Shown: positions 24,889-37,224, numbered from the stretch's first letter. The stretch: DNA of 64,000 nt from a bacterium (GCA_963674965.2 CAXXFL010000003.1:128001-192000), one strand, 5' to 3'. Numbers and translations are program-made. Notes: generated from the sequence alone by a model not told the origin.

Positions 24889-25674
24889 TCAGTCCAGGTC
24901 GAACTCAGCCACGATGGGGGTGTGGTCGGATGGCTTCTTGGCCTTGCGGGGGGCCACGTCGATATAGGCGTCCCGTGATTTTTCCGCGATGGCCCGCGTT
25001 CCCAGGATATGGTCTACCCGCCAGCCGGCGCCCTTGGCGACCGCGTCCTTTACCCGGTAGTCCCAGAAGGAGTATTGGCCCTCCCCGGGCTTATGCTTGC
25101 GAAAGACGTCCTCGAAGCCCCACTCCATAACTTTTTCCAGCTTTTTTATCACCTCGGGGTGGTAATCCACGTGGCCGAGCAGCCGCTTGGGGTCGTGGAC
25201 GTCGATCGCGGTGGGGGCCACGTTCAAGTCGCCCACCCATAAAAGCTTGTCGCCGGGGGAATAGTTCTTTTGGAAATAGGCCAGGAGACGGTCGAACCAT
25301 TTCAATTTGTATTGGAAGTAGTCGCTCTCGGCGTCCCTTCCCTGGGGCACGTAGGCGTTGACCAGGTGGACCCCATCCACCACCGCCGCGATCAGGCGGG
25401 TCTCGTCCGAGTCCTTGCTCCCGCCCAGGCCGTACCTTACGTCCTCGGCCATGGACTGGGAAATAATGGCCACCCCGTTATAAGCCTTCTCGCCCCGGAA
25501 AGCCACGTTATACCCGGCTTCCCTGATGGGGTCCTCGGGGAAGTCCTTGTCCTGGACCTTGGTCTCCTGGAGACAAAAAGCGTCGGGCTGATGCTTGTGA
25601 AGCCAGTCCAGCAGGATGGGCATCCTGCTCCGGATGGAGTTGACGTTCCAACTCGCTATTTTCCAGGTCCCCAT
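24889..25674 (-). CDS. xth: Exodeoxyribonuclease III / AP endonuclease
   Basis: SWNVNSIR, LQETK, YNGVA, GDLNVAP, WRVDH and SDHTP. Confidence 0.96.
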   Translation of the reverse strand: MGTWKIASWNVNSIRSRMPILLDWLHKHQPDAFCLQETKVQDKDFPEDPIREAGYNVAFRGEKAYNGVAIISQSMAEDVRYGLGGSKDSDETRLIAAVVDGVHLVNAYVPQGRDAESDYFQYKLKWFDRLLAYFQKNYSPGDKLLWVGDLNVAPTAIDVHDPKRLLGHVDYHPEVIKKLEKVMEWGFEDVFRKHKPGEGQYSFWDYRVKDAVAKGAGWRVDHILGTRAIAEKSRDAYIDVAPRKAKKPSDHTPIVAEFDLD

Positions 25675-25702
25675 TTTTCACCTTTCGCGAACGCGGCGCG
25701 GG

Positions 25703-26926
25703 TCATCGTTTTTGCGCCGCCATCAGCACGTGGCCGTATATCGCCGCTCCCAGGGCCACTCCCTCGTCGGGCATGATCTGGTCGTAAATAATATCGCCGA
25801 AAACCTCCCGCAGGCGCTGCTTGATCTTGGGCATGCGCGTCTGGCCGCCAACCAGAAGCATGGCGTCCAGCTTGAGGTTGGGGTCCAGGGTCCGGGCGTT
25901 CTCGATGGTATCGAGGGCCACGGAGATGGTTTTCTCGATCAGGTTGGACATGAGGTAATCGAGCAGGTCCCGGGAGAGCTTGACGTCGATGTCAACCTTG
26001 GGGTCTATCTCGGGTATGACCTTGGACACGTGGATAAGGGTCTGGGGGGTGTCCGAGAGCGCGATCTTGGATTTCTCCGACTCCGTCTTGATGGCCCGCA
26101 GGATGTCCTTGTCCGTGATGCTGATACCCTCACGGTAATTGGCGCCGTCGGCGAAGGTCTTGTTGCGCGTGGATATCTTGAACTCGCTCAAAAGGTAGTC
26201 CAGGATGCCGTGATCGAAATCGTCTCCCCCCAGCCAGGGCTCGCCCATGGTGGCCAGCTCGTCGTATCCTCCCGGCACCCTCCGGAAAACGGAGAAGTCG
26301 AAGGTACCCCCGCCGAGGTCGTAAACCGCGATGGTGTGCTCGCCCTTGTTCTGATACCCGAAGGCGTAGGCGCTGGCCATGGTCTCGTCCAGGAGGCCGA
26401 TGATGTTGAACCCCACCTTTTCCGCCACCTGCTTGATGGCCGTGGAGTACCTGGTCTTCTGCGTGGTGGGCATGGTGATAACCACGTCCTCCATGGGCTC
26501 CTTGAGAAAGGTCTCGCTCATCTGCTTCAAGTAGCGGAAGATGTAAGTGGCTATGTCGATGGGCGTGGCCGTCAGGTCCATCTCGTTGATGCGCACGAGG
26601 ATGTCCATCTCGTGGCTCTTGGCGTTGGGGTCCTTGTCCAGGATGTAATAATACTTCTCCTGGGCGATCTTCACGTCATCCGACTCGTAGCTGCGGCCGA
26701 TGAAGCGCTTGATCGAGTGGATGGTGCAAAAGGGGTTTTCCACGTACTTGGACTTGGCCGCCCGGCCCACCATGACCCTGACGTTCCCCCCCTTCTGGTA
26801 GAAGTAAACCACCGAGGGAACAAGTTTGTATCTTTCCTTGTCCAGCGCCACCTTGGGCTTGCCCTGGTCCAGGTAGGCGACGCAGGAGTTGGTCGTACCG
26901 AAATCTATACCGAAAACCCGGCCCAT
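25703..26926 (-). CDS. Hsp70-family protein, nucleotide-binding domain only
   Basis: GIDFGTTNS, VYDLGGGTFD, LGGDDFD, LVGGQTRMP and PDEGVALGAA. Ends directly after the NBD (407 aa). Confidence 0.88.
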   Translation of the reverse strand: MGRVFGIDFGTTNSCVAYLDQGKPKVALDKERYKLVPSVVYFYQKGGNVRVMVGRAAKSKYVENPFCTIHSIKRFIGRSYESDDVKIAQEKYYYILDKDPNAKSHEMDILVRINEMDLTATPIDIATYIFRYLKQMSETFLKEPMEDVVITMPTTQKTRYSTAIKQVAEKVGFNIIGLLDETMASAYAFGYQNKGEHTIAVYDLGGGTFDFSVFRRVPGGYDELATMGEPWLGGDDFDHGILDYLLSEFKISTRNKTFADGANYREGISITDKDILRAIKTESEKSKIALSDTPQTLIHVSKVIPEIDPKVDIDVKLSRDLLDYLMSNLIEKTISVALDTIENARTLDPNLKLDAMLLVGGQTRMPKIKQRLREVFGDIIYDQIMPDEGVALGAAIYGHVLMAAQKR

Positions 26927-26946
26927 TTTTCCTCCCGATTATGCCG

Positions 26947-27429
26947 TTATTTCTGGCTGGCCATCCGGATGATCTCGTTGGCGATGGCCAGCCTTTCCGT
27001 CGTCTCCCGCAGGCGGTGGGAAAGGACCATCGTAAGCCTCCGGTAAATCTTGAAGGCGATCTCATGGTCGTTTTGCATGAGGTCCATGAAGTATTCCTTT
27101 TTGATACGGAACAACTTCACCTCGGTCCTGGCCCTGACCGTGGCCGAGCGGGGCTCGCCCTCCACCAGGGCCATCTCCCCGAAAAGCTCGCCCTCCCCGA
27201 GAACGGCCACCACCGCCTCCTCGTTGGAGTCGTCCTCGGGCTTGTCCACCACCACCTCGACCTCGCCCTCCCGGACGAGGTACATGGCGTCGCCCGCCTC
27301 ACCCCTTTTAAAGACCTTGCCCCCCGCGTTCAGGCTGACCTTCTGAACAAGGTTCGAGACCTTGATCAGCTCCGAGTTGGAAAGGTCGCGGAAAAGAGGT
27401 ATCTTTTTCAAAAGCTCGAAAGGTTCCAT
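26947..27429 (-). CDS. Stand-alone cyclic nucleotide-binding domain protein
   Basis: IPLF, GDAMYLV..GEVEV and the phosphate-binding cassette FGEMALVEGEPRSATV. No HTH domain. Confidence 0.9.
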   Translation of the reverse strand: MEPFELLKKIPLFRDLSNSELIKVSNLVQKVSLNAGGKVFKRGEAGDAMYLVREGEVEVVVDKPEDDSNEEAVVAVLGEGELFGEMALVEGEPRSATVRARTEVKLFRIKKEYFMDLMQNDHEIAFKIYRRLTMVLSHRLRETTERLAIANEIIRMASQK

Positions 27430-28823: not shown

Positions 28824-29122
28824 AAGGAGCAAGGGTAACAATCCGCCGGCAATACAATATCTTTCCGATTCGGCCCGAGTCGTTAGTTTTCTTTTAACGA
28901 GCGTTTTTATTTTCACGAGGCCTTATAATGTGCTATTATTTTTTGTAACGGACACGTAGTTTGCTAATCCATATCGGCGAGGTTAAATATGTATATGGCC
29001 TTGCGGGATATCTCAGTAGTTTTCGAAAAGCAGGAAGTTTTCCGAACTAGCCGTTTACTACCCAAAAATCAGATACCGCCGGAGAATTCGCGCGTGCATG
29101 AAACAAAAAATGGAGATTGCCA

Positions 29123-29587
29123 ATGACCACCGTATCAACCACCTCCGACGTGGAGTCCGTCCTTTCGGCCTTTGAAAGGTCCAGGGAGAACCTCATACCC
29201 ATCCTTCAGGGAGTGCAGCGGAAAGAGGGGTTTATCTCGGAGGACGCGCTCATCAGGATCTCCGAATACCTCGAGCTGTCGCCCAACGACGTTTACGGAG
29301 TGGCCACCTTTTACGCCCAGTTCAGGTTCCTGCCTCCCGGCAAGTGCCAGATCAAGGTCTGCCAGGGAACGGCCTGCCACGTGAGGGGAGGAAAGAACAT
29401 CCTCGACGCCGTCGTCAAAAAGCTGGGCATCAAGCCGGGCGAGACCACGGAGGACCTCGAGTACAGCCTCGAGCGGGTGGCCTGCTTCGGGTCCTGCGCC
29501 CTGGCCCCGGTGGTGGTCATCGACGACAAGGTCTACGGCAGGATGAGCCCGAAGAAAACCGAAGAGCTTATAAAGGATCGCAAATGA
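29123..29587 (+). CDS. nuoE: NuoE/HydC-like [2Fe-2S] subunit
   Basis: LIPILQ, VYGVATFYAQF, CQGTACHVRG and CFGSCALAP. Confidence 0.93.
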   Translation: MTTVSTTSDVESVLSAFERSRENLIPILQGVQRKEGFISEDALIRISEYLELSPNDVYGVATFYAQFRFLPPGKCQIKVCQGTACHVRGGKNILDAVVKKLGIKPGETTEDLEYSLERVACFGSCALAPVVVIDDKVYGRMSPKKTEELIKDRK

Positions 29588-32500
29588 GCTTCACGCGCAT
29601 GAAGGAAAAGGCGAGGCTGGAGTGGGACGACTTCTCCAGCGAGGGAAGACCCCGCGTGCTCATAGGCTCGGCCACCTGCGGCCGGGCCGCCGGAGCTCTC
29701 GAGGTCCTCGAGGTTTTCCGCGACGAGTTCCGGAAGCGGGGCATGAGCGACGAGGTCAAGATTTACGAGGTCGGCTGCCTCGGCCTCTGCTACGCCGAGC
29801 CGCTCGTCGAGATCAAGGACGCCAAGGGCCTCCGGGTCCTCTACCGGGGAGTCATGCCCAGGACCGTGCCCAAGCTGATCGAGAAGCACGTCCTGAACGG
29901 CGAGCCCCACGAAAGGCGGGCCATGGCCGTCATGGGAGAGGGCCAATTAAAGGACGTTCCCTCCTTCGCCGACCTTCCCATGATCCAGAACCAGGTCAGG
30001 ATAGTCCTGCGCAACTGCGGGAACATCGACCCCACCAACGTGGACCACTACGTGGCCAGGGGAGGATACTCCGGCTTCGAGAGATGCCTCGCCATGTCCC
30101 CCGAGGAGGTGATCGAGGAGATGAAGGCCTCGGGCCTCCGGGGCAGGGGAGGGGCCGGTTTTCCCACCGGGCTTAAATGGTCCTTCGCCCGCAAGACCAA
30201 AAGCGACGACAAGTACGTCGTGTGCAACGCCGACGAGGGTGACCCCGGGGCCTTCATGGACAGGTCGGTCCTGGAGGGAGACCCCCACGCCGTGCTGGAG
30301 GGAATGCTTATCGCCGGCTACGCCATCGGCGCCAACCATGGATACGTCTACTGCCGGGCCGAGTACCCCCTGGCCATCGAGAGGCTCAAGATCGCCATCT
30401 CCCAGATGAAGGAAATGGGGGTCTTGGGCGAGAACGTCATGGGAAGCGGCTTTTGCTTCGACGTGAAAATCAAGATGGGCGCGGGGGCCTTCGTCTGCGG
30501 GGAGGAAACCTCGCTCATGGCCTCGATCGAGGGCCAAAGGGGCATGCCCCGCTCCAAGCCGCCCTTTCCCGCCGTTTCCGGACTCTTCGGCAAGCCCACC
30601 AACATCAACAACGTCGAGACCCTGGCGGCCGTTTCGGCCATCATGGAAAAGGGCGCCCAGTGGTACGCCGGGTACGGCACGGAGAAGAGCAGGGGGACCA
30701 AGACCTTCGCCCTGGCCGGCAAGATCAACCGCACCGGGCTCATCGAGGTCCCCCTCGGCATTCCGCTCTCGACCATCATCTTCGACGTGGGAGGCGGCAT
30801 CCTCCACAACAAGAAGTTCAAGGCCGTACAGACGGGCGGGCCCTCCGGCGGCTGCATCCCCCCCGAGCATCTGAACCTTCCCGTTGACTACGAGAACCTG
30901 GCCGAGGTCGGGTCGATCATGGGCTCGGGCGGCATGATAGTGATCGACGAGGACTCCTGCATGGTGGACGTGGCCAAGTACTTCCTGGGCTTCACCGAGG
31001 ACGAGTCCTGCGGCAAATGCGTGCCCTGCAGGATGGGAACCCAGCACCTGCGCCGTATCCTCACCGATATTACCGAGGGCAGGGGACATATTAAAATGCT
31101 CGACCAGATGCAGCTCATCGGCGACACCATGAAAAAGGGTTCCCTTTGCGGCCTGGGCCAGACGGCGGCCAACCCGGTCCTCAGCACCCTCCGTTATTTC
31201 AAGAACGAGTACGAGGCCCATATTTACGACCACAAGTGCCCGGCGACGGTATGCGCCGAGCTTTTCCTCAGCCCCTGCCAGCACGCCTGCCCCATCGAGA
31301 TGGACGTGCCCGCCTATATCGCGCTGGTCCGGGCGGGCCGGCTCGAGGACGCCTACCGGGTCCTGAAAAGGACCAACCCCTTCCCCAGCGTGTGCGGAAG
31401 GGTCTGCGGGCATTACTGCCAGAAGAAATGCCGACGGGCCCAGACGGACGAGCCGGTGGCCATTCGCGCCCTCAAGCGCTTCATCACCGACAACGCGCCT
31501 CATCCCAGGGCCGAGAAGATACCCGTCACGAGAAAGGAGAGGATCGCCGTCATCGGCGCCGGTCCCTCCGGCCTGACCTGCGCCTACGAACTGAGGAGGC
31601 GGGGCTACGAGGTGGTCGTGTTCGAGGCCTCGCCCAAGCCGGGCGGGATGCTGAGATGGGCCATCCCCGACTACCGCCTGCCCCCGGAAATCCTCGAGAA
31701 GGAAATCCAGGAAATAGTTGACATGGGAGTCGAGATCAGGACGGGCATCAAGGTGGGCGACGTGGAGAGCCTCGAGGCCCTGGACCGGCGCTTCGACCAT
31801 ATTTACCTGGCGGTGGGCGCGCAAAAGAGCGTTCCCCTCATGATACCCGGAGAGGACGCCGGAGGAGTGTACGGCGCCATCGAGTTTTTGAAGACGGTCA
31901 ACGCCGGGACGCCGCCGCCCGTGGGCAGGAAGGTGGCCGTGGTCGGCGGCGGCAACTCGGCCATCGACTCGGCCCGCTCGGCCGTAAGGCTGGGGGCGGA
32001 GGACGTGACGCTTTACTACCGGCGCGAGGAAAAAGAGATGCCGGCGCTTCAGGAGGAGATCGACGCGGCCCGCGAGGAGGGCGTCAAGTTCGAGTTCCTG
32101 TCCAGTCCCACCAGGATCATCGAGGCGGGCGGCAAGGTCAAGGGCCTCGAGCTGGTCCGGATGAAGCTGGGCGAGGTTGACGGGAGCGCCAGGAAGCGGC
32201 CCTTCCCGGTCGGCGGCTCGGAGTTCACCATCGAGGCCGACTCCATAATCTCGGCCATCGGGCAGGAGGCCGACCTCGAGTTCGGGCCCGGCAGGAGGCG
32301 CATGGGCGTCGAGTTCGTGTCCAACCGAATCAAGGTGGACAAGAAGGGAAGGAGCCAGAGCACCAAGGTGTGGGCCGGAGGCGACGTGGTCACCGGTCCG
32401 GCCATGGTTATCGACGCCATCCAGGGAGGAAGGGACGCCGCCATGGCCATCGACGAGTCCATTCGGGACCAGAACGGGGAAGAGCTGTGGAGGGAGACCC

Positions 32501-32679
32501 CCGACGGGATCGAGATACCCTACTTCGAGGCCGCCGGGGAGATGGAAATGGTCCGGATACCCATGGCCCCCGCCAAGGAGAGGGTCAAGGACTTCAGGGA
32601 GGTCGAGAAGGGCTACTCCAAGGAAGAGGCCATGCTCGAGGCCTCCCGCTGCCTCCGCTGCGACTTCCGTGGAGAGTGA
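29584..32679 (+). CDS. NuoF/HydB-like FMN/NAD(H) subunit fused to a GltD/NfnB-like FAD-NAD(P)H oxidoreductase domain
   Basis: The ATG at 29584 overlaps the nuoE stop. NuoF part: GLRGRGGAGFPTG, CNADEGDPGAFMDRS, GAGAFVCGEETSL, TGGPSGG, ESCGKCVPC, LCGLGQ, EAHIYDHKCPATVC. GltD part: PCQHACP, CGRVC, IGAGPSG, GGGNSAID, YRR, AGGDVVTGP, EASRCLRC. Confidence 0.92.
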   Translation: MSFTRMKEKARLEWDDFSSEGRPRVLIGSATCGRAAGALEVLEVFRDEFRKRGMSDEVKIYEVGCLGLCYAEPLVEIKDAKGLRVLYRGVMPRTVPKLIEKHVLNGEPHERRAMAVMGEGQLKDVPSFADLPMIQNQVRIVLRNCGNIDPTNVDHYVARGGYSGFERCLAMSPEEVIEEMKASGLRGRGGAGFPTGLKWSFARKTKSDDKYVVCNADEGDPGAFMDRSVLEGDPHAVLEGMLIAGYAIGANHGYVYCRAEYPLAIERLKIAISQMKEMGVLGENVMGSGFCFDVKIKMGAGAFVCGEETSLMASIEGQRGMPRSKPPFPAVSGLFGKPTNINNVETLAAVSAIMEKGAQWYAGYGTEKSRGTKTFALAGKINRTGLIEVPLGIPLSTIIFDVGGGILHNKKFKAVQTGGPSGGCIPPEHLNLPVDYENLAEVGSIMGSGGMIVIDEDSCMVDVAKYFLGFTEDESCGKCVPCRMGTQHLRRILTDITEGRGHIKMLDQMQLIGDTMKKGSLCGLGQTAANPVLSTLRYFKNEYEAHIYDHKCPATVCAELFLSPCQHACPIEMDVPAYIALVRAGRLEDAYRVLKRTNPFPSVCGRVCGHYCQKKCRRAQTDEPVAIRALKRFITDNAPHPRAEKIPVTRKERIAVIGAGPSGLTCAYELRRRGYEVVVFEASPKPGGMLRWAIPDYRLPPEILEKEIQEIVDMGVEIRTGIKVGDVESLEALDRRFDHIYLAVGAQKSVPLMIPGEDAGGVYGAIEFLKTVNAGTPPPVGRKVAVVGGGNSAIDSARSAVRLGAEDVTLYYRREEKEMPALQEEIDAAREEGVKFEFLSSPTRIIEAGGKVKGLELVRMKLGEVDGSARKRPFPVGGSEFTIEADSIISAIGQEADLEFGPGRRRMGVEFVSNRIKVDKKGRSQSTKVWAGGDVVTGPAMVIDAIQGGRDAAMAIDESIRDQNGEELWRETPDGIEIPYFEAAGEMEMVRIPMAPAKERVKDFREVEKGYSKEEAMLEASRCLRCDFRGE

Positions 32680-32703
32680 TCCCAAAAAAGGAGCAATGAG
32701 CAG

Positions 32704-35226
32704 ATGACGGAAATAACGCTCACCATAGACGGCCGGTCGGTAACGGTGGAAAAAGGCAAGACCGTTCTCGAGGCCGCCAGGTCCGCCGGCATAGAGATAC
32801 CCACCATATGCGCCCATGAGGACCTGCCTCATTACGGCTCGTGCCGGATGTGCATCGTCAACATCGAGGGCGTAAGGGGATACCCGACCTCCTGCACCAC
32901 GCCCGCCGAGGACGGCATGGTGGTAAGGACCCAGACCGAGGAACTGAGGAGCCTGCGGGCGCGTATTCTCGAGCTCATGCTCTCGGGCCATCCCAACTCC
33001 TGCCTGGTCTGCGACCACCGGGAGGACTGCGAAAGATTGAGGCCCAAGCCCACCAAGTCGGGACGCGCCACCAGGTGCGGGGTCTGCTCGAACCGGGACG
33101 AGTGCGAGATTCGAGGCATGACCTTCCAGCTCGAGCCAGAGTACGAGCTCGAGCTCGCCACCATATACAAGGAAAGGGCGGTCGAAAAGTACGACCCCTT
33201 CATGGACCGCGATTACAACCTCTGCGTCCTGTGCGGGAGGTGCTGGAGGATTTGCGAGAAAATTCACGGCAAGCCCGCCATCTTCATCATCAACCGGGGA
33301 AAGAACGCCAGGCCCGGGACTTATTTCAACAAGAGCCACGTCGAGTCGGGATGCACCTTCTGCGGCGCCTGCGTGGACATCTGTCCCACCGGGGCCCTGT
33401 CCGACCGCTACGCCAGGTGGTACGGCTTCCCCGACGAGGAGGTCAAGTCCACCTGCGTGCTCTGCGCCGAGGGATGCCCCATCTGGACCCAGGTCTCGGA
33501 GTTTAAGACCGTGGCCAACCGCATGACCGGCTTCAACCGCGAGAAGAGGCTCTGCGCCATGGGCAGGTTCGCCTACGCCCAGTTGGTCAACTCCCCCGAC
33601 CGCCTGCTTCGGCCGCTGGTCCGGGAGAACGGCGAGCTTATTTCCGTGGACTGGGACGAGGCGATAAAGCGGGCCGCCGAGCTTCTTACGGGATGCAGGG
33701 GAGACGGCTTCGCGGTCATCGTGAGCGCCTCCGAGACGCGCGAGACCCGTTTCCTTTACAAGCGCCTGGCCAGGGAAGTTATGAAGGGACACATGATCAA
33801 CGTTCCCTTTGGCGGCTGCCTCGACGACGCCGAGCCCCGCGAGCTGGTGGCCGACCTTAAGTCGGGCAAGATAAAGTCGGTCATCTGCGCGGGCAACTAT
33901 CTCGACCCCGAGACGATCTCCCTTATCGAGGCCCTGGTGGTGGTCGATTTCCTTCCCTCTCCCTTGCTCGAGGCCGCCCACGTGGCGCTGCCCGCGGCGG
34001 TCCTGTCGGAAGTGGAGGGGACCTTCAAGGACCATCTGGGAGAGATCAAGGCCGTCATCAAGTCCAGCGTGGCCCCCGGCCAGGCCCGGGGCGGATGGCG
34101 CGTGGCCAGGGACCTGGCCAGGGCGCTGGGCGGAAAAGGGTTCGACGACGAGTCCCCCCGCGCCGTGACTCCCGACGTGGAAAAGGACAGGCCGCCCAAG
34201 GCCCCGAAGGTCTCGCCCCGCGACGGCCTCGACGCCCTGCCCGTGAGGTTCAGGGGACATTACATCGCCGACGCGGTTTGCGCGCTCGAGTCCATGGGCC
34301 TTCCCACCGCCCCGAGGACCAAGGCGGACCAGGCTTCCGCCGGCGGCTTCCTGGTGGTCGAGAAGGAGGAGCCCATCCCCAACTTCCATTTCCTCAAGAT
34401 CGAGGCCCCGGCCGTTGCGTCCTACGCCAAGCCCGGCCAGTTCGTGATCGTCATGACCAGGGAAACCTCGGAGCGCGTTCCCTTTACCCTGGTGGACTGG
34501 GACGCCGGGGAGGGGACCATTACCCTCGTGGTCGAGGAAGTGGGACGCTCGAGCCGCGAGGTGGCGGCCCTGAAAAAGGGAGACCGGATCGCCCACGTCA
34601 CCGGTCCTCTCGGGCTTCCCTTCCCGATCGAGAAAAAGGGGACCGTGGCCCTGGGCGGCGGCTGTTACGGCATCGGCGCCATCTATCCTATCGCCAAGGC
34701 CCTCAAGGAGGCGGGCAACAAGGTTATTACGACCCTCGAGGCCTCGAGCCATTACCTTCTTTACTGGGCCGATAAAATAGCCGCGGTCAGCGACGAGTTC
34801 CACGTGGCCACCAAGGACGGAAGCGAGGGCAGGAAGGGCGGCGTGCAGGAGGTCTTCATGGACCTTATCGAGAGGGGCGAGAAAATCGACGCCTTCGTCG
34901 CCATTGGCTGCACCTTCATGATGCGCATGGTCAGCGAGAAAACCAGGGACTCCGGAGTGCCGACCTACGTGGCCCTCAACCCCATCATGGTCGATGGGAC
35001 GGGCATGTGCGGCGCCTGCAGGGTTTCCATCGCCGGCGATACCAAGTTCGCCTGCGTGGACGGCCCCATTTTCAACGGCCACGACGTGGACTGGGACGAG
35101 TTGTTCTCGAGGCGGGGCGCCTACGGCGTGGTCGAGATCGAGGCCCTGCCCCAGGACGCGAAAATCAAGGGAGAGGGCGGACACAAGTGTCACGGCTCCT
35201 GCTCCCGCGACGACCATCAACGCTAA
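32704..35226 (+). CDS. NuoG/HydA-like iron-sulfur arm with a truncated molybdopterin-oxidoreductase scaffold, fused to a C-terminal NfnA/SudB domain
   Basis: N-terminal part: IPTIC...GSCRMC...TSC, HPNSCLVC, CVLCGRCWRIC / CTFCGACVDICP, CVLCAEGC...LC, DRLLRPL. C-terminal part: KPGQFVI, ERVPFT, GPLG, LNPIMVDGTGMCGACRV, FACVDGP. Confidence 0.9.
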   Translation: MTEITLTIDGRSVTVEKGKTVLEAARSAGIEIPTICAHEDLPHYGSCRMCIVNIEGVRGYPTSCTTPAEDGMVVRTQTEELRSLRARILELMLSGHPNSCLVCDHREDCERLRPKPTKSGRATRCGVCSNRDECEIRGMTFQLEPEYELELATIYKERAVEKYDPFMDRDYNLCVLCGRCWRICEKIHGKPAIFIINRGKNARPGTYFNKSHVESGCTFCGACVDICPTGALSDRYARWYGFPDEEVKSTCVLCAEGCPIWTQVSEFKTVANRMTGFNREKRLCAMGRFAYAQLVNSPDRLLRPLVRENGELISVDWDEAIKRAAELLTGCRGDGFAVIVSASETRETRFLYKRLAREVMKGHMINVPFGGCLDDAEPRELVADLKSGKIKSVICAGNYLDPETISLIEALVVVDFLPSPLLEAAHVALPAAVLSEVEGTFKDHLGEIKAVIKSSVAPGQARGGWRVARDLARALGGKGFDDESPRAVTPDVEKDRPPKAPKVSPRDGLDALPVRFRGHYIADAVCALESMGLPTAPRTKADQASAGGFLVVEKEEPIPNFHFLKIEAPAVASYAKPGQFVIVMTRETSERVPFTLVDWDAGEGTITLVVEEVGRSSREVAALKKGDRIAHVTGPLGLPFPIEKKGTVALGGGCYGIGAIYPIAKALKEAGNKVITTLEASSHYLLYWADKIAAVSDEFHVATKDGSEGRKGGVQEVFMDLIERGEKIDAFVAIGCTFMMRMVSEKTRDSGVPTYVALNPIMVDGTGMCGACRVSIAGDTKFACVDGPIFNGHDVDWDELFSRRGAYGVVEIEALPQDAKIKGEGGHKCHGSCSRDDHQR

Positions 35227-35250
35227 CCTAACCTGGAAGCGAGCGAGAAC

Positions 35251-36726
35251 ATGAACGACGAGGATAAAAAGAAGAAAAAGGAAAGAGTTCCACGACAGCC
35301 CATGCCCGAGCAGGACCCCCGCAGCCGGCGCAACAACATGAGTGAGGTCCCCTACGGCTACTCGCCCGAGACGGCCATGCTCGAGGCCTCCCGCTGCCTC
35401 AACTGCAAGAAGCCCAAGTGCGTCGAGGGATGCCCGGTGAACATCAACATCCCCGGCTTCATCAGCCTCATCGCCGCGGGCAAGTTCATCGAGGCCGAGG
35501 CCAAGCTCAAGGAGCAGACGGCCCTGCCGGCGGTCTGCGGCCGGGTCTGCCCGCAGGAGTCCCAGTGCGAGTCGAGGTGCATCCTGGGCAAGAAGCAGGA
35601 ACCCGTGGCCATTGGCCGGCTCGAGCGCTTCGCGGCCGACTACGCCCGGGAAAAGGGCGAGTTCAAGAAGCCCGAGATGGCCCCTCCCACGGGGAAGAAG
35701 GTCGCCGTCGTCGGGGCCGGACCCGCCGGCATCACCGTGGCGGGCGACCTGGTCCGGTGGGGACACGAGGTGGTCATGTTCGAGGCCCTGCATCTGCCCG
35801 GCGGGGTCCTCATGTACGGCATACCCGAGTTCCGCCTGCCCAAGGCCATCGTCCAGCACGAGATCAATAACTTAAAGGCCCTGGGCGTGGCCATCCACGC
35901 CGACCACGTCATCGGCAAGACCGAGACCGTCGAGGAACTTTTCGACCTGGGCTACGACGCCATCTTCGTGGGATCGGGCGCCGGGCTTCCCATGTTCCTG
36001 AAAATCCCCGGGGAGAACGCCATCGGCGTTTACTCGGCCAACGAGTTTTTAACCAGAATAAATTTGATGAAGGCCTACGATTTCCCGCGTTACGCCACGG
36101 CCCCCGTCAGGGCGCGCCACGTGATCACCGTGGGCGGCGGCAACGTGGCCATGGACTCGGCTCGCAACTCGATCCGGCTGGGGGCGAAATCGACCATCGT
36201 TTACAGGAGGAGCCGCGAGGAGATGCCGGCCCGGGCCGAGGAAGTCCATCACGCCGAGCAGGAGGGCGTCGATTTCCACCTCCTTACCAACCCCGTCAGG
36301 ATACTAACCGACGACAAGAACCGGGTCACCGGAATGGAGTGCCTGAAAATGGAACTGGGTGAGCCGGACGACTCGGGCCGGAGAAGGCCGGTACCCGTCG
36401 AGGGCAGCAACTTCGTCATCGAGGCGGACACGGTGATCATCTCGATCGGCAACCGACCCAACCCCCTCATACCACAGACCACTCCCACCCTCGAGACCAC
36501 CAGGTGGGGAACCATCGTGGCGGACGAGGAATCCATGGCCACCTCCATGGAGGGCGTCTTCGCCGGAGGCGACGTGGTCTCGGGCGCGGCCACCGTCATC
36601 AGCGCCATGGGCCAGGGCAAAAAGGCGGCCCTCAGCATCCATCGCTACCTAATGGACGCCGACCCCCCCGGCTATGAAAAACCGGAAAAGGAAGAGGAGA
36701 AAAAAGAAGCCGCCGCCGGGGCCTGA
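35251..36726 (+). CDS. nfnB: NfnB / SudA-type large subunit (often annotated as homotetrameric NADPH glutamate synthase)
   Basis: EASRCLNCKKPKCVEGCPV, CGRVCPQESQCE, GAGPAG, YGIPEFRLPK, GGGNVAMD, YRRS and GGDVVSGAATV. Follows an NfnA domain. Confidence 0.88.
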   Translation: MNDEDKKKKKERVPRQPMPEQDPRSRRNNMSEVPYGYSPETAMLEASRCLNCKKPKCVEGCPVNINIPGFISLIAAGKFIEAEAKLKEQTALPAVCGRVCPQESQCESRCILGKKQEPVAIGRLERFAADYAREKGEFKKPEMAPPTGKKVAVVGAGPAGITVAGDLVRWGHEVVMFEALHLPGGVLMYGIPEFRLPKAIVQHEINNLKALGVAIHADHVIGKTETVEELFDLGYDAIFVGSGAGLPMFLKIPGENAIGVYSANEFLTRINLMKAYDFPRYATAPVRARHVITVGGGNVAMDSARNSIRLGAKSTIVYRRSREEMPARAEEVHHAEQEGVDFHLLTNPVRILTDDKNRVTGMECLKMELGEPDDSGRRRPVPVEGSNFVIEADTVIISIGNRPNPLIPQTTPTLETTRWGTIVADEESMATSMEGVFAGGDVVSGAATVISAMGQGKKAALSIHRYLMDADPPGYEKPEKEEEKKEAAAGA

Positions 36727-37224
36727 CTTGGATCGCCATTTTGGTTCCCCGATAAGTCCCGTAGGGACGGCGGTCTATAGCCCAGGGTGAAGGCCGCGAT
36801 TGGCGGCCGAAACCCTGGGAGAAGATGACGATAAACAAATGAGTCCAAAAGGGACGGCGAAAATGAGGAAAGGCCCGGTAAAATACGGCCATCTTCCTGG
36901 CTGGAAATTTTGCGCCGCGCCTTCAGCGCTCGGGTTCTTGCTTGATCTCATACCCAGGGTTACGGACGCGGAGCGCGTCCTCCACCCTGGGCTGTAGATC
37001 ATCGCCCCATCCGGGGCTTTAAAGGAGCGAAAAGAGAGCGGTGGCCCGGCAGGTTTTCAAGAAACCGAGCGTGGTACCTCGAATCGGGATGGGCTGCGGG
37101 CCCGGATAGCTTCGCAAGAAACCGTTCGGGGCTTTGCGGGAGCGACAAGGACGGGGCGCCATCGGTATTCAATTTTCAAAGAGCAAGGCGGGTCGCGCCG
37201 CCGGGGCCTGACTTGGATCGCCAT
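36711..37224 (+). repeat. 29-bp perfect direct repeat pair (36711-36739 and 37196-37224)
   Basis: CGCCGCCGGGGCCTGACTTGGATCGCCAT occurs twice. The first copy contains the nfnB stop codon. Confidence 0.9.
36756..37018. repeat. REP/MITE-like palindromic element (inverted doublet of CCCAGGGT...ACCCTGGG hairpins)
   Basis: Hairpins at 36781-36819 and 36953-36991. Outer inverted repeat CTATAGCCCAGGGTG (36775-36789) / CACCCTGGGCTGTAG (36983-36997) matches at 14/15. Short flanking hairpins GTCCC-GTA-GGGAC and GCCCC-ATCC-GGGGC. Confidence 0.65.

Follow-up and report, generated by a model that had tools for sequence, protein, structure and literature searches.

A widespread operon links a NuoEFG/HydABC-like module to an NfnSL transhydrogenase by gene fusion

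A 64,000-nucleotide stretch of bacterial DNA (GCA_963674965.2, CAXXFL010000003.1:128001-192000), referred to here as the window, carries four co-oriented open reading frames (ORFs) spanning 29123-36726 on the + strand, in which an NfnSL transhydrogenase is encoded together with, and through one subunit fused to, a NuoEFG/HydABC-like module of the Bfu type. The operon is real, is widespread, is uncharacterised as far as our search of the literature went, and is built from known modules. Judged from the sequence, it would seem rather probable that it encodes one soluble oxidoreductase for NAD(H), NADP(H) and ferredoxin with the arrangement BfuC - BfuB::GltD - BfuA::NfnS - NfnL, which would serve as a redox balancer of the transhydrogenase type. 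A sequence-only reading of the window had proposed such a hybrid, with a complete NfnAB tethered to a diaphorase module. As a whole that interpretation is partly supported: the NfnS and NfnL pair is indeed tied covalently to the NuoEFG/HydABC-like module.

The first gene, g1 (29123-29587, +), encodes a 154-residue NuoE/BfuC-like protein with a thioredoxin-like [2Fe-2S] domain (the C1 cluster). It is followed by g2 (29584-32679, +; 1031 residues), a NuoF/BfuB protein fused to a GltD-type NADPH/flavin adenine dinucleotide (FAD) domain, by g3 (32704-35226, +; 840 residues), a NuoG-like Fe-S arm fused to NfnS (NfnA), and by g4 (35251-36726, +; 491 residues), which is NfnL (NfnB) with the b-FAD, an NADPH site and two [4Fe-4S] clusters. 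The ATG of g2 and the stop codon of g1 overlap as ATGA, the g2-g3 and g3-g4 gaps are exactly 24 nt each and an AGGAG lies 11 nt ahead of g3. The coordinates and domain order confirm the tight linkage, single overlap and 24-bp gaps described earlier, and the Pfam and NCBIfam profiles used for the domain calls on g1-g4 agree with the identities then given to the four genes. For g1 the matches are PF01257 (2Fe-2S_thioredx/NuoE, 171 bits) and NF005722 (156.6 bits), and its translation has the four-Cys pattern CxxxxC...CxxxC by which the C1 [2Fe-2S] cluster of BfuC is recognised in the Bfu family.

In g2, PDB matches and ligand alignment define a BfuB/NuoF core (residues 1-557; 29584-31254, +) followed by a GltD domain of the Stn/Nfn-Bfu type with two [4Fe-4S] clusters, an FAD and an NADPH site (residues 563-1031; 31270-32679, +). 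The profile matches are Complex1_51K (181-351), NADH_4Fe-4S (462-546), Fer4_20 (554-638) and Pyr_redox_2 (653-949), of which the last two together make up the GltD module. The top PDB matches of the NuoF part are all B subunits of bifurcating enzymes (7t2r_B with 710 bits, 9bov_B, 8oh5_B, 9n5u_B and 7q4v_B), and it has the flavin mononucleotide (FMN)/NADH site, B1 cluster, His/Cys B2 Zn site and GGPSG loop that mark BfuB in the Bfu family. The loop reads GGPSGG and the B1 [4Fe-4S] ligands are C476/C479/C482/C522, while C459/H546/C552/C557, which are invariant in 80 NuoF::GltD sequences, align with the Zn(B2) hinge ligands C437/H524/C529/C534 reported for Thermococcus sibiricus NfnB (PMC12018979). 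The N-terminal Cys pattern (B5 site) is the same as in StnB and T. sibiricus NfnB; this site is given as [2Fe-2S] in Sporomusa ovata and as Zn in T. sibiricus (PMC12018979).

The GltD part scores higher against 9bov_A (397 bits), 9n5u_A (376) and 8oh5_C (340) than against 4ylf_B, the Tma NfnB (332). It has a Lys at the position of StnC K170 and an Arg at that of R239. According to PMC10482914 and PMC12018979, this Lys is in Stn the special ligand of the cluster beside the non-bifurcating FAD, where NfnL has a Glu. Neither the Lys (K631 in g2) nor the NADPH motif GGGN..D..R / YRR varies among the same 80 sequences. With a GltD-type NADPH/FAD domain and a Lys-ligated cluster, as found in Stn and Nfn-Bfu, the GltD domain of g2 is predicted to be of the non-bifurcating Stn/Nfn-Bfu type.

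The pair of CxxCxxCxxxCP motifs (B3/B4) that forms the ferredoxin domain of the Bfu family is absent from g2. This ferredoxin-like domain of BfuB is described as the site of ferredoxin and treated as invariant in true Bfu enzymes (PMC9304861). In Bfu enzymes the B3/B4 docking site receives its electrons from the swinging C1 cluster of BfuC. Between the last hinge Cys of g2 and the first GltD Cys there are only 7 residues, compared with 12 residues to B3 in the operons that have B3/B4 (form 1, below). The GltD domain is therefore placed, by alignment, directly after an intact Zn hinge and in the position of the ferredoxin-binding B3/B4, and since its clusters sit there, NADP(H) would stand where ferredoxin normally reacts. 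The AlphaFold2 (AF2) model of g2 has a mean predicted local distance difference test (pLDDT) score of 90.4 and a predicted template modelling (pTM) score of 0.88, with a pLDDT of at least 92 across the junction (residues 541-570). A complex prediction for g2 548-1031 with g3 1-300, made from separate alignments, scored 0.00 in each of two runs, the mark to reach being 0.32, and speaks neither for nor against docking. The NuoF-GltD fusion had been recognised in the earlier reading; what that reading missed was the Stn type of the domain, the replacement of B3/B4, the commoner form that has no GltD and the reuse of the fusion beside FdhA and HydA.

The third gene is likewise a fusion, of a NuoG/BfuA-like Fe-S arm with sites A1-A5 and a truncated, non-catalytic molybdopterin-like domain (residues 1-545; 32704-34338, +) to an NfnS (NfnA) domain with an a-FAD and a [2Fe-2S] cluster (residues 549-816; 34348-35151, +). 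The arm matches Fer2_4 (2-78), NADH-G_4Fe-4S_3 (85-110), Fer4_Nqo3 (165-232) and, weakly, Molybdop_Fe4S4 (246-293), and its Molybdopterin match covers only the first ~80 of 353 model positions. The C-terminal part matches PRK06222 (NfnS-like; 551-816, 333 bits) and DHODB_Fe-S_bind (759-796). The domain combination expected from the sequence-only reading is thus found for Fer2_4, NADH-G_4Fe-4S, Molybdop_Fe4S4 and DHODB_Fe-S_bind; FAD_binding_6, also expected, gave no match at E<=0.01. Ligands can be assigned to the A1 [2Fe-2S] (C36/C47/C50/C64), the His-ligated A2 (H96/C100/C103/C109), A3/A4 (C174/177/180/184 and C217/220/223/227), A5 (C251/254/258/284) and the NfnS cluster (C769/C772/C784), and all are kept in 120-121 of 121 fusion sequences. 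An additional CxxCxxxxxC motif (C125/C128/C134; window 33076-33105) stands after the His-ligated cluster and before the dicluster domain, and 121/121 fusion proteins have it without change. Its counterpart in the alignment with the Caldicellulosiruptor saccharolyticus (Csac) NfnA is the Cys-rich stretch behind the GltD insertion. The motif may be a further cluster site or a relic of a GltD insertion site.

Compared with solved structures, the NfnS domain of g3 scores 276.6 bits against 5jca_S (Pfu NfnI-S) and 242.9 bits against 4ylf_A, and it retains the MVDGTGMCGACRV...FACVDGP motif. Its model superposes on 5jca_S in Foldseek with a TM score of 0.91 and 48% identity in the structural alignment, and the remainder of the g3 model matches the folds of NuoG, FdsA and NiFe-HydA. 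The full g3 model has a pTM of 0.69, with residues 241-540, including the joining stretch, at pLDDT 77-98. The PyrK-like FAD/NAD fold and the Asp plus three-Cys [2Fe-2S] site of NfnS are both present, and the NAD loop departs from the solved enzymes (see below). The partner subunit g4 matches TIGR01316 with 604 bits (cut-off 472), and its motifs PVAIGRLERF, which holds the Glu ligand, and GIPEFRLPK, which holds the flavin Arg, are identical to those of Tma NfnB (4ylf_B). Two [4Fe-4S] clusters, the proximal Glu ligand, the b-FAD with its Arg and the NADPH site are all in place, so that by sequence g4 has the features of a bifurcating b-FAD subunit.

Counting conserved Cys motifs over the operon gives FMN, three FAD and 12-14 Fe-S sites (one in g1, 3-4 plus Zn in g2, 6-7 in g3 and two in g4), in keeping with the earlier estimate of about four flavins and more than ten clusters. 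As had also been claimed, no Fe_hyd_lg_C, NiFe or Molydop_binding domain was matched in g1-g4, and the operon is accordingly predicted to have no catalytic H-cluster, NiFe site or complete Mo-pterin module.

To see how widely the arrangement occurs, g3 was used in a word-indexed protein search in which 7999 candidates were scored, 2306 reached E<=0.001 and the best 120 were listed. All 120 are full fusions (789-861 residues, 92-100% coverage, 55-66% identity, both PF13510 and PF10418), from Desulfonatronum, Desulfobulbus, Omnitrophica, Phycisphaerales and Vicinamibacteria among others. The same type of search with g2 listed at least 120 proteins of 971-1054 residues at 91-100% coverage, with Syntrophales, Abyssubacteria, Poribacteria and Spirochaetota among the sources of NuoF::GltD. 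A genome scan with one genome per species found 37 loci with a relative of g3, in Desulfobulbales, Syntrophobacteraceae, Desulfonatronum, Phycisphaerae, Acidobacteriota and Riflebacteria. NfnL, 72-78% identical to g4, lies directly downstream of NuoG::NfnS in 34 of these; the other three loci have at most 602 nt left on the contig. NuoF lies upstream in 34/37 and NuoE in 30/37, each miss falling at a contig end. The full set of four was found in 28/37 loci, always in the order NuoE-NuoF-NuoG::NfnS-NfnL, and at least five phyla share both the NuoG::NfnS fusion and the gene order. The synteny check suggested with the earlier reading therefore comes out in its favour, as does the recurrence of the fusion far beyond one assembly. 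No flanking gene family or regulator is common to more than 7 of the 37 loci, and the four genes therefore constitute a self-contained conserved unit. Local frame breaks were seen in the NuoF of one locus (L016:5102-6820) and the NfnL of another (L028:9726-10971), which are possibly sequencing errors of those assemblies.

The operon comes in two forms. In form 1, which accounts for 29 of the 31 loci whose B gene is complete, B has 612-632 residues, bears all the B1-B5 motifs of BfuB and ends in the two CxxCxxCxxxC(P) motifs (B3/B4). Its cultured hosts include Desulfobulbus rhabdoformis DSM 8777 (L015) and Desulfogranum japonicum DSM 18378 (L033). Form 2, with the 1031-residue NuoF::GltD, occurs among the 37 loci only in L014, and also in eight protein clusters (P0122-P0129) whose N-terminal part is 69-76% and GltD part 57-67% identical to g2. 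The collection holds 13 genomes of the phylum of the window: NuoG::NfnS is present in four, all of one family, with form 2 in G004 and G005 and form 1 in G007, and four others have a stand-alone NfnS of 288-305 residues.

A tree of B subunits (94 rows, IQ-TREE) places 36 of the 38 B subunits beside NuoG::NfnS in one clade, with a Shimodaira-Hasegawa-like approximate likelihood ratio test (SH-aLRT) value of 100. Within it the 27 form-1 rows are nested (SH-aLRT 96) and the nine form-2 rows are basal or unresolved, and the sister of the clade is formed by four NuoF::GltD proteins. The nine GltD domains of form 2 come out as one clade in a GltD tree (95), and the nearest GltD relatives of form 2 differ from its nearest NuoF relatives. 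Rows left out were L014 (the same gene as P0123), L058 (the same as L006), L016 (broken frame), L068 (truncated) and two of every three rows of P0130-P0240. We had at one point considered a recent replacement of B3/B4 by GltD in this lineage; with form-2 rows basal or unresolved, form-1 rows nested and a GltD-fused sister group this was revised, and the tree suggests that form 2 may be the older state of the operon. Two form-1 operons, L012 and L035, have a B subunit from another BfuB clade, 52-55% identical to g2, which falls in with other canonical BfuB genes; there the B gene has apparently been swapped while NuoG::NfnS and NfnL were kept.

The NuoF::GltD protein is found with other catalytic partners in the same phylum. 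At three loci (L079:7740-13523, L080:7088-12871 and L081:804-6589) NuoE and NuoF::GltD are followed by a complete FdhA of 894-896 residues, and at a fourth (L077:1563-6422) by the [FeFe]-hydrogenase subunit HydA (575 residues). NuoF::GltD is therefore a reusable variant of the B subunit, and these loci suggest that there are formate dehydrogenases and hydrogenases whose BfuB has an NADPH domain where its ferredoxin domain would be. No description of FdhA or HydA linked to NuoF::GltD was found in the available portions of the Bfu, Nfn and Stn literature. In a further locus (L086:10231-12909) FdhA is split into 348 and 539 residues inside the Molybdopterin domain, and the break may be a selenocysteine TGA.

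With NfnSL the operon shares the Asp/3-Cys [2Fe-2S] motif, the Glu-ligated proximal cluster and the flavin Arg. NfnSL occurs as two free subunits or as an S-L fusion, whereas here NfnS is the C-terminal domain of an 840-residue protein, joined to a 545-residue NuoG-like arm and encoded with NuoE and NuoF. Of the four Nfn fusion patterns A-D described by Liang et al. (2019; PMC6405883), none in the text available is of the NuoG::NfnS kind. With the Nfn-Bfu/StnABC enzymes (S. ovata, 8oh5; C. saccharolyticus, 9bov; T. sibiricus, 9n5u) it shares the NuoE/NuoF-like core, the GGPSG loop, the Zn hinge, the N-terminal Cys pattern, the Stn-specific Lys ligand of the GltD domain and the Cys-rich arm segment that aligns with the stretch after their GltD insertion. 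StnABC, however, has three subunits, with GltD inserted in the NuoG-like A and B3/B4 kept in B, and has neither NfnS nor NfnL (PMC10482914); in the window GltD forms the C-terminal end of B, where B3/B4 would otherwise lie, and the operon has a whole NfnSL besides. The same paper states that Stn has no NfnA homologue, as the sequence-only reading also says, and that Nfn has no HydBC homologue. The Bfu family (HydABC, NiFe-HydABCSL, Fdh- and Wor-Bfu; Schut et al. 2022, PMC9304861) has in common with the operon a BfuBC-like core and a BfuA-like arm leading to a third module, but the BfuB of the window is without B3/B4 and none of the Bfu types in section 5 of that review has NfnSL as its third module.

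There are partial precedents for such combinations. In Bam-Bfu, the class II benzoyl-CoA reductase, Bfu is combined with HdrA and two bifurcating modules have been proposed in one complex (PMC9304861), and ANME-1 archaea have HdrA with an NfnB-like insert (HdrA::NfnB; bioRxiv 10.1101/2021.09.25.461819). As presented there, these involve other modules and substrates, not Bfu with NfnSL, and the double bifurcation is only proposed. Nfn and Stn/Nfn-Bfu are treated as unrelated and nearly exclusive ways of connecting the pools of NADH, NADPH and ferredoxin (PMC7483475, PMC10482914, PMC12018979), and Kremp et al. (2020; PMC7483475) describe Stn and Nfn as almost mutually exclusive in acetogens. NuoG::NfnS, an NfnSL-linked Bfu and NuoF::GltD are all undescribed in the portions available of Liang 2019, Kumar 2023, Xiao 2025, Kremp 2020, Schut 2022 (section 5), Poudel 2018, Leavitt 2016, Sedano-Nunez 2018, Sewell 2017, Chadwick 2021, PMC12221290 and PMC11829005. 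Full-text searching found no study of NuoE-NuoF-NuoG::NfnS-NfnL, though the supplementary operon table of PMC9304861, which lay outside the search, may list such operons.

From these likenesses we infer that the four products would form one complex which couples NADH, NADPH and ferredoxin, possibly with two bifurcation sites. NuoE and NuoF would bind the N-terminal arm of g3, as in HydABC and Stn, and NfnL would bind the NfnS domain, as in NfnSL. NADH would react at the FMN, NADPH at two flavins, the GltD-FAD and the NfnL b-FAD, and ferredoxin at the NfnL clusters. The mobile C1 cluster of g1 would pass electrons to the GltD clusters, with NADP(H) replacing ferredoxin on that branch. The source genome (6.5 Mb in 7 contigs, 97.6% complete) has a single NfnS-like gene at 80 bits or more, which is g3. 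Since the operon thus holds the only NfnS of the genome, it probably does the Nfn job of the cell, linking and balancing its NADH, NADPH and ferredoxin pools.

Several points weigh against a single oxidoreductase of this kind. The contacts between subunits are drawn from homology. Because an NADPH domain sits at the ferredoxin dock, the Bfu core of form 2 fails a defining feature of the Bfu family, and may be altogether unable to bifurcate. In NfnS the NAD loop reads GGCYG (residues 651-656, GGGCYG; window 34654-34671), where the solved NAD-dependent Pfu and Tma NfnS have GGGVG. A loss of NAD binding in the fusion was considered as the explanation and rejected, the 120 closest shorter or stand-alone NfnS matches listed having the same G-C-[YF]-G loop as the window (121/121 rows). 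The loop is therefore a subfamily trait, and points to an unstudied subfamily of NfnS. Finally, by our own arithmetic several of the possible wirings yield energetically odd net reactions.

For this arithmetic E' values of -280 (NADH), -380 (NADPH) and -500 mV (ferredoxin, Fd) were taken from Table 1 of PMC9304861, and the ferredoxin potential needed to hold NADPH at -380 mV was calculated for each wiring. If the arm leads to the NfnS branch, form 1 would carry out NADH + 6 Fd(red) -> 4 NADPH (about -413 mV) and form 2 NADH + 4 Fd(red) -> 3 NADPH (about -430 mV), as compared with NADH + 2 Fd(red) -> 2 NADPH (about -480 mV) for an ordinary Nfn; this wiring would be a 'low gear', producing NADPH when the ferredoxin pool is only weakly reduced. 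If it leads to the NfnL clusters, form 2 would perform plain NADPH:NAD+ exchange with no ferredoxin involved, and form 1 would convert 4 NADPH to 3 NADH and 2 Fd(red). The alternative wirings predict different, measurable stoichiometries.

That the operon family is a serial (two-stage) or re-geared electron-bifurcating machine seems to us unlikely. In the serial case the b-FAD of NfnL would split the electrons of NADPH, and the low-potential electrons would then run down the NuoG-like wire rather than to ferredoxin and be split again at the Bfu flavin/cluster site. For form 1 the reaction would be 4 NADPH + 3 NAD+ + 2 Fd(ox) = 4 NADP+ + 3 NADH + 2 Fd(red), and ferredoxin would come to equilibrium near -680 mV, as against about -480 mV for an ordinary Nfn. 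Either the serial or the low-gear wiring would give an NADPH:NADH:Fd ratio unlike that of every known transhydrogenase, and halves wired in series would offer a tractable soluble system for studying cascaded bifurcation sites and the stoichiometry that results.

The first of the remaining explanations, which we hold to be improbable, is that an ordinary NfnSL rides on a diaphorase scaffold. NuoE, NuoF::GltD and the arm would then make up an NAD(P)H module of their own, either Stn-like or non-bifurcating, and the fusion would give co-localisation or stability without electron transfer between the halves. The NfnS and NfnL parts are 44-55% identical to solved NfnSL and retain all its canonical motifs, NfnS is joined through a non-catalytic molybdopterin-like remnant, and in T. 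sibiricus NfnABC the A5 cluster is reported to lie at least 20 Å from the others and is thought to be idle (PMC12018979). A scaffold does not account well, though, for a fusion and gene order retained in at least five phyla with a dedicated clade of B subunits. Across the 121 sequences the A1-A5 ligands are invariant in an arm that lacks a catalytic site of its own, which makes a wire leading nowhere improbable, and the junction (residues 470-540) is modelled at pLDDT 77-98 and is therefore not a floppy tether.

Next in likelihood, and also improbable, comes a ferredoxin-independent enzyme, in which the BfuB::GltD version would be a plain NADPH:NAD+ transhydrogenase or a module confurcating NADH and NADPH. 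The loss of the B3/B4 domain to an NADPH/FAD domain is what such an enzyme would show, an arm wired to the NfnL clusters would give 3 NADPH + 3 NAD+ = 3 NADH + 3 NADP+ by the same arithmetic, and beside FdhA (L079-L081) or [FeFe]-HydA (L077) a formate or H2 enzyme driven by NADH and NADPH would be sensible. Yet NfnL retains its two [4Fe-4S] clusters and bifurcating-type ligands, the form-1 orthologues retain the ferredoxin domain of BfuB (29/31 complete B genes), and a machine of 2500 residues and 13 clusters is unlikely for an exergonic hydride exchange.

We give little credence to the idea that the NfnSL-like module serves polysulfide or sulfur, the substrates implied by the older annotations of SudAB and Nso, or some other small molecule as an NAD(P)H-dependent reductase. 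Sequence sources label the fusion 'sulfide/dihydroorotate dehydrogenase-like', but these names come from homology, and although relatives of StnC were first described as NADPH sulfur oxidoreductase, SudAB and Nso were later reinterpreted as enzymes of the Nfn type (PMC10482914, PMC7483475). Many hosts are sulfur-cycling Desulfobacterota, but the fusion is also found in Planctomycetota, Acidobacteriota and Riflebacteria, and no extra catalytic domain or conserved neighbour gene accompanies it. False fusions from assembly or gene calling, a general possibility to which only the local frame breaks in L016 and L028 lend anything, are refuted for practical purposes by at least 120 full-length clusters listed for each fusion from independent sources, by the genome loci, by the joint recurrence of both fusions in G004 and G005 and by confident models across both junctions.

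Both machineries, Bfu and Nfn, are welded together in this conserved operon, whose hosts include a small candidate phylum as well as sulfate reducers, syntrophs, Planctomycetota and Acidobacteriota, and the 'NfnAB' of Desulfobulbus and Syntrophobacter genome and proteome papers may therefore belong to a larger Bfu-type complex. In S. fumaroxidans, Sfum_2150-2151 are reported as NfnAB and were seen only with fumarate (PMC5947623). The BfuB::GltD form would amount to a natural experiment, with NADP(H) in the place of ferredoxin on the low-potential Bfu branch; an exchange of the ferredoxin port for an NADPH port bears on how that branch works.

The source genome is unusually rich in Bfu-like sets, with at least five NuoE/NuoF modules besides the operon; the six NuoE/NuoF(/NuoG-like) sets noted lie on contig C1 (393966-396720, 579320-582621, 1460467-1463295 and 1602376-1605251) and at C5:339096-342021 and C7:861792-864834. 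It also has six other GltD-type genes. The three largest are fusions, and their translations were judged by eye: those of 1137 residues (C6:513218-516631, -) and 1126 residues (C2:371170-374550, +) look like HdrA with an inserted NfnB/GltD-like domain, the kind of fusion known from ANME-1 archaea, and that of 739 residues (C5:813102-815321, -) seems to have an RnfB-like N-terminus fused to GltD. No Stn-type A subunit was seen among these three.

The neighbours of the operon are unrelated, with genes for a DUF2330 protein, a cNMP-binding protein and an Hsp70-like protein upstream and unassigned convergent genes downstream. At the Hsp70-like gene (25703-26926, -; PF00012, 273 bits) the opposite strand has an ORF (25616-27046, +) with a 127-bit match to PF10712, 'NAD-specific glutamate dehydrogenase', which looks like an antisense shadow. 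An antisense ORF of 1970 residues also runs across g2-g4 (29947-35859, -); all family matches are on the + strand, and this ORF is no gene but a shadow of the GC-rich coding sequence. The 299-nt AT-rich gap upstream of g1 holds a weak sigma-70-like promoter match (28910-28939, +) with 9/12 hexamer positions, which is only suggestive, two sites being found where shuffled sequences give 1.3. A terminator search found no + strand terminator-like site after g4. Two long GC-rich inverted repeats were seen there by eye (36782-36820 and 36953-36991, +), both beginning CCCAGGGT and ending ACCCTGGG, and these may be REP-like elements or terminators without the T tract.

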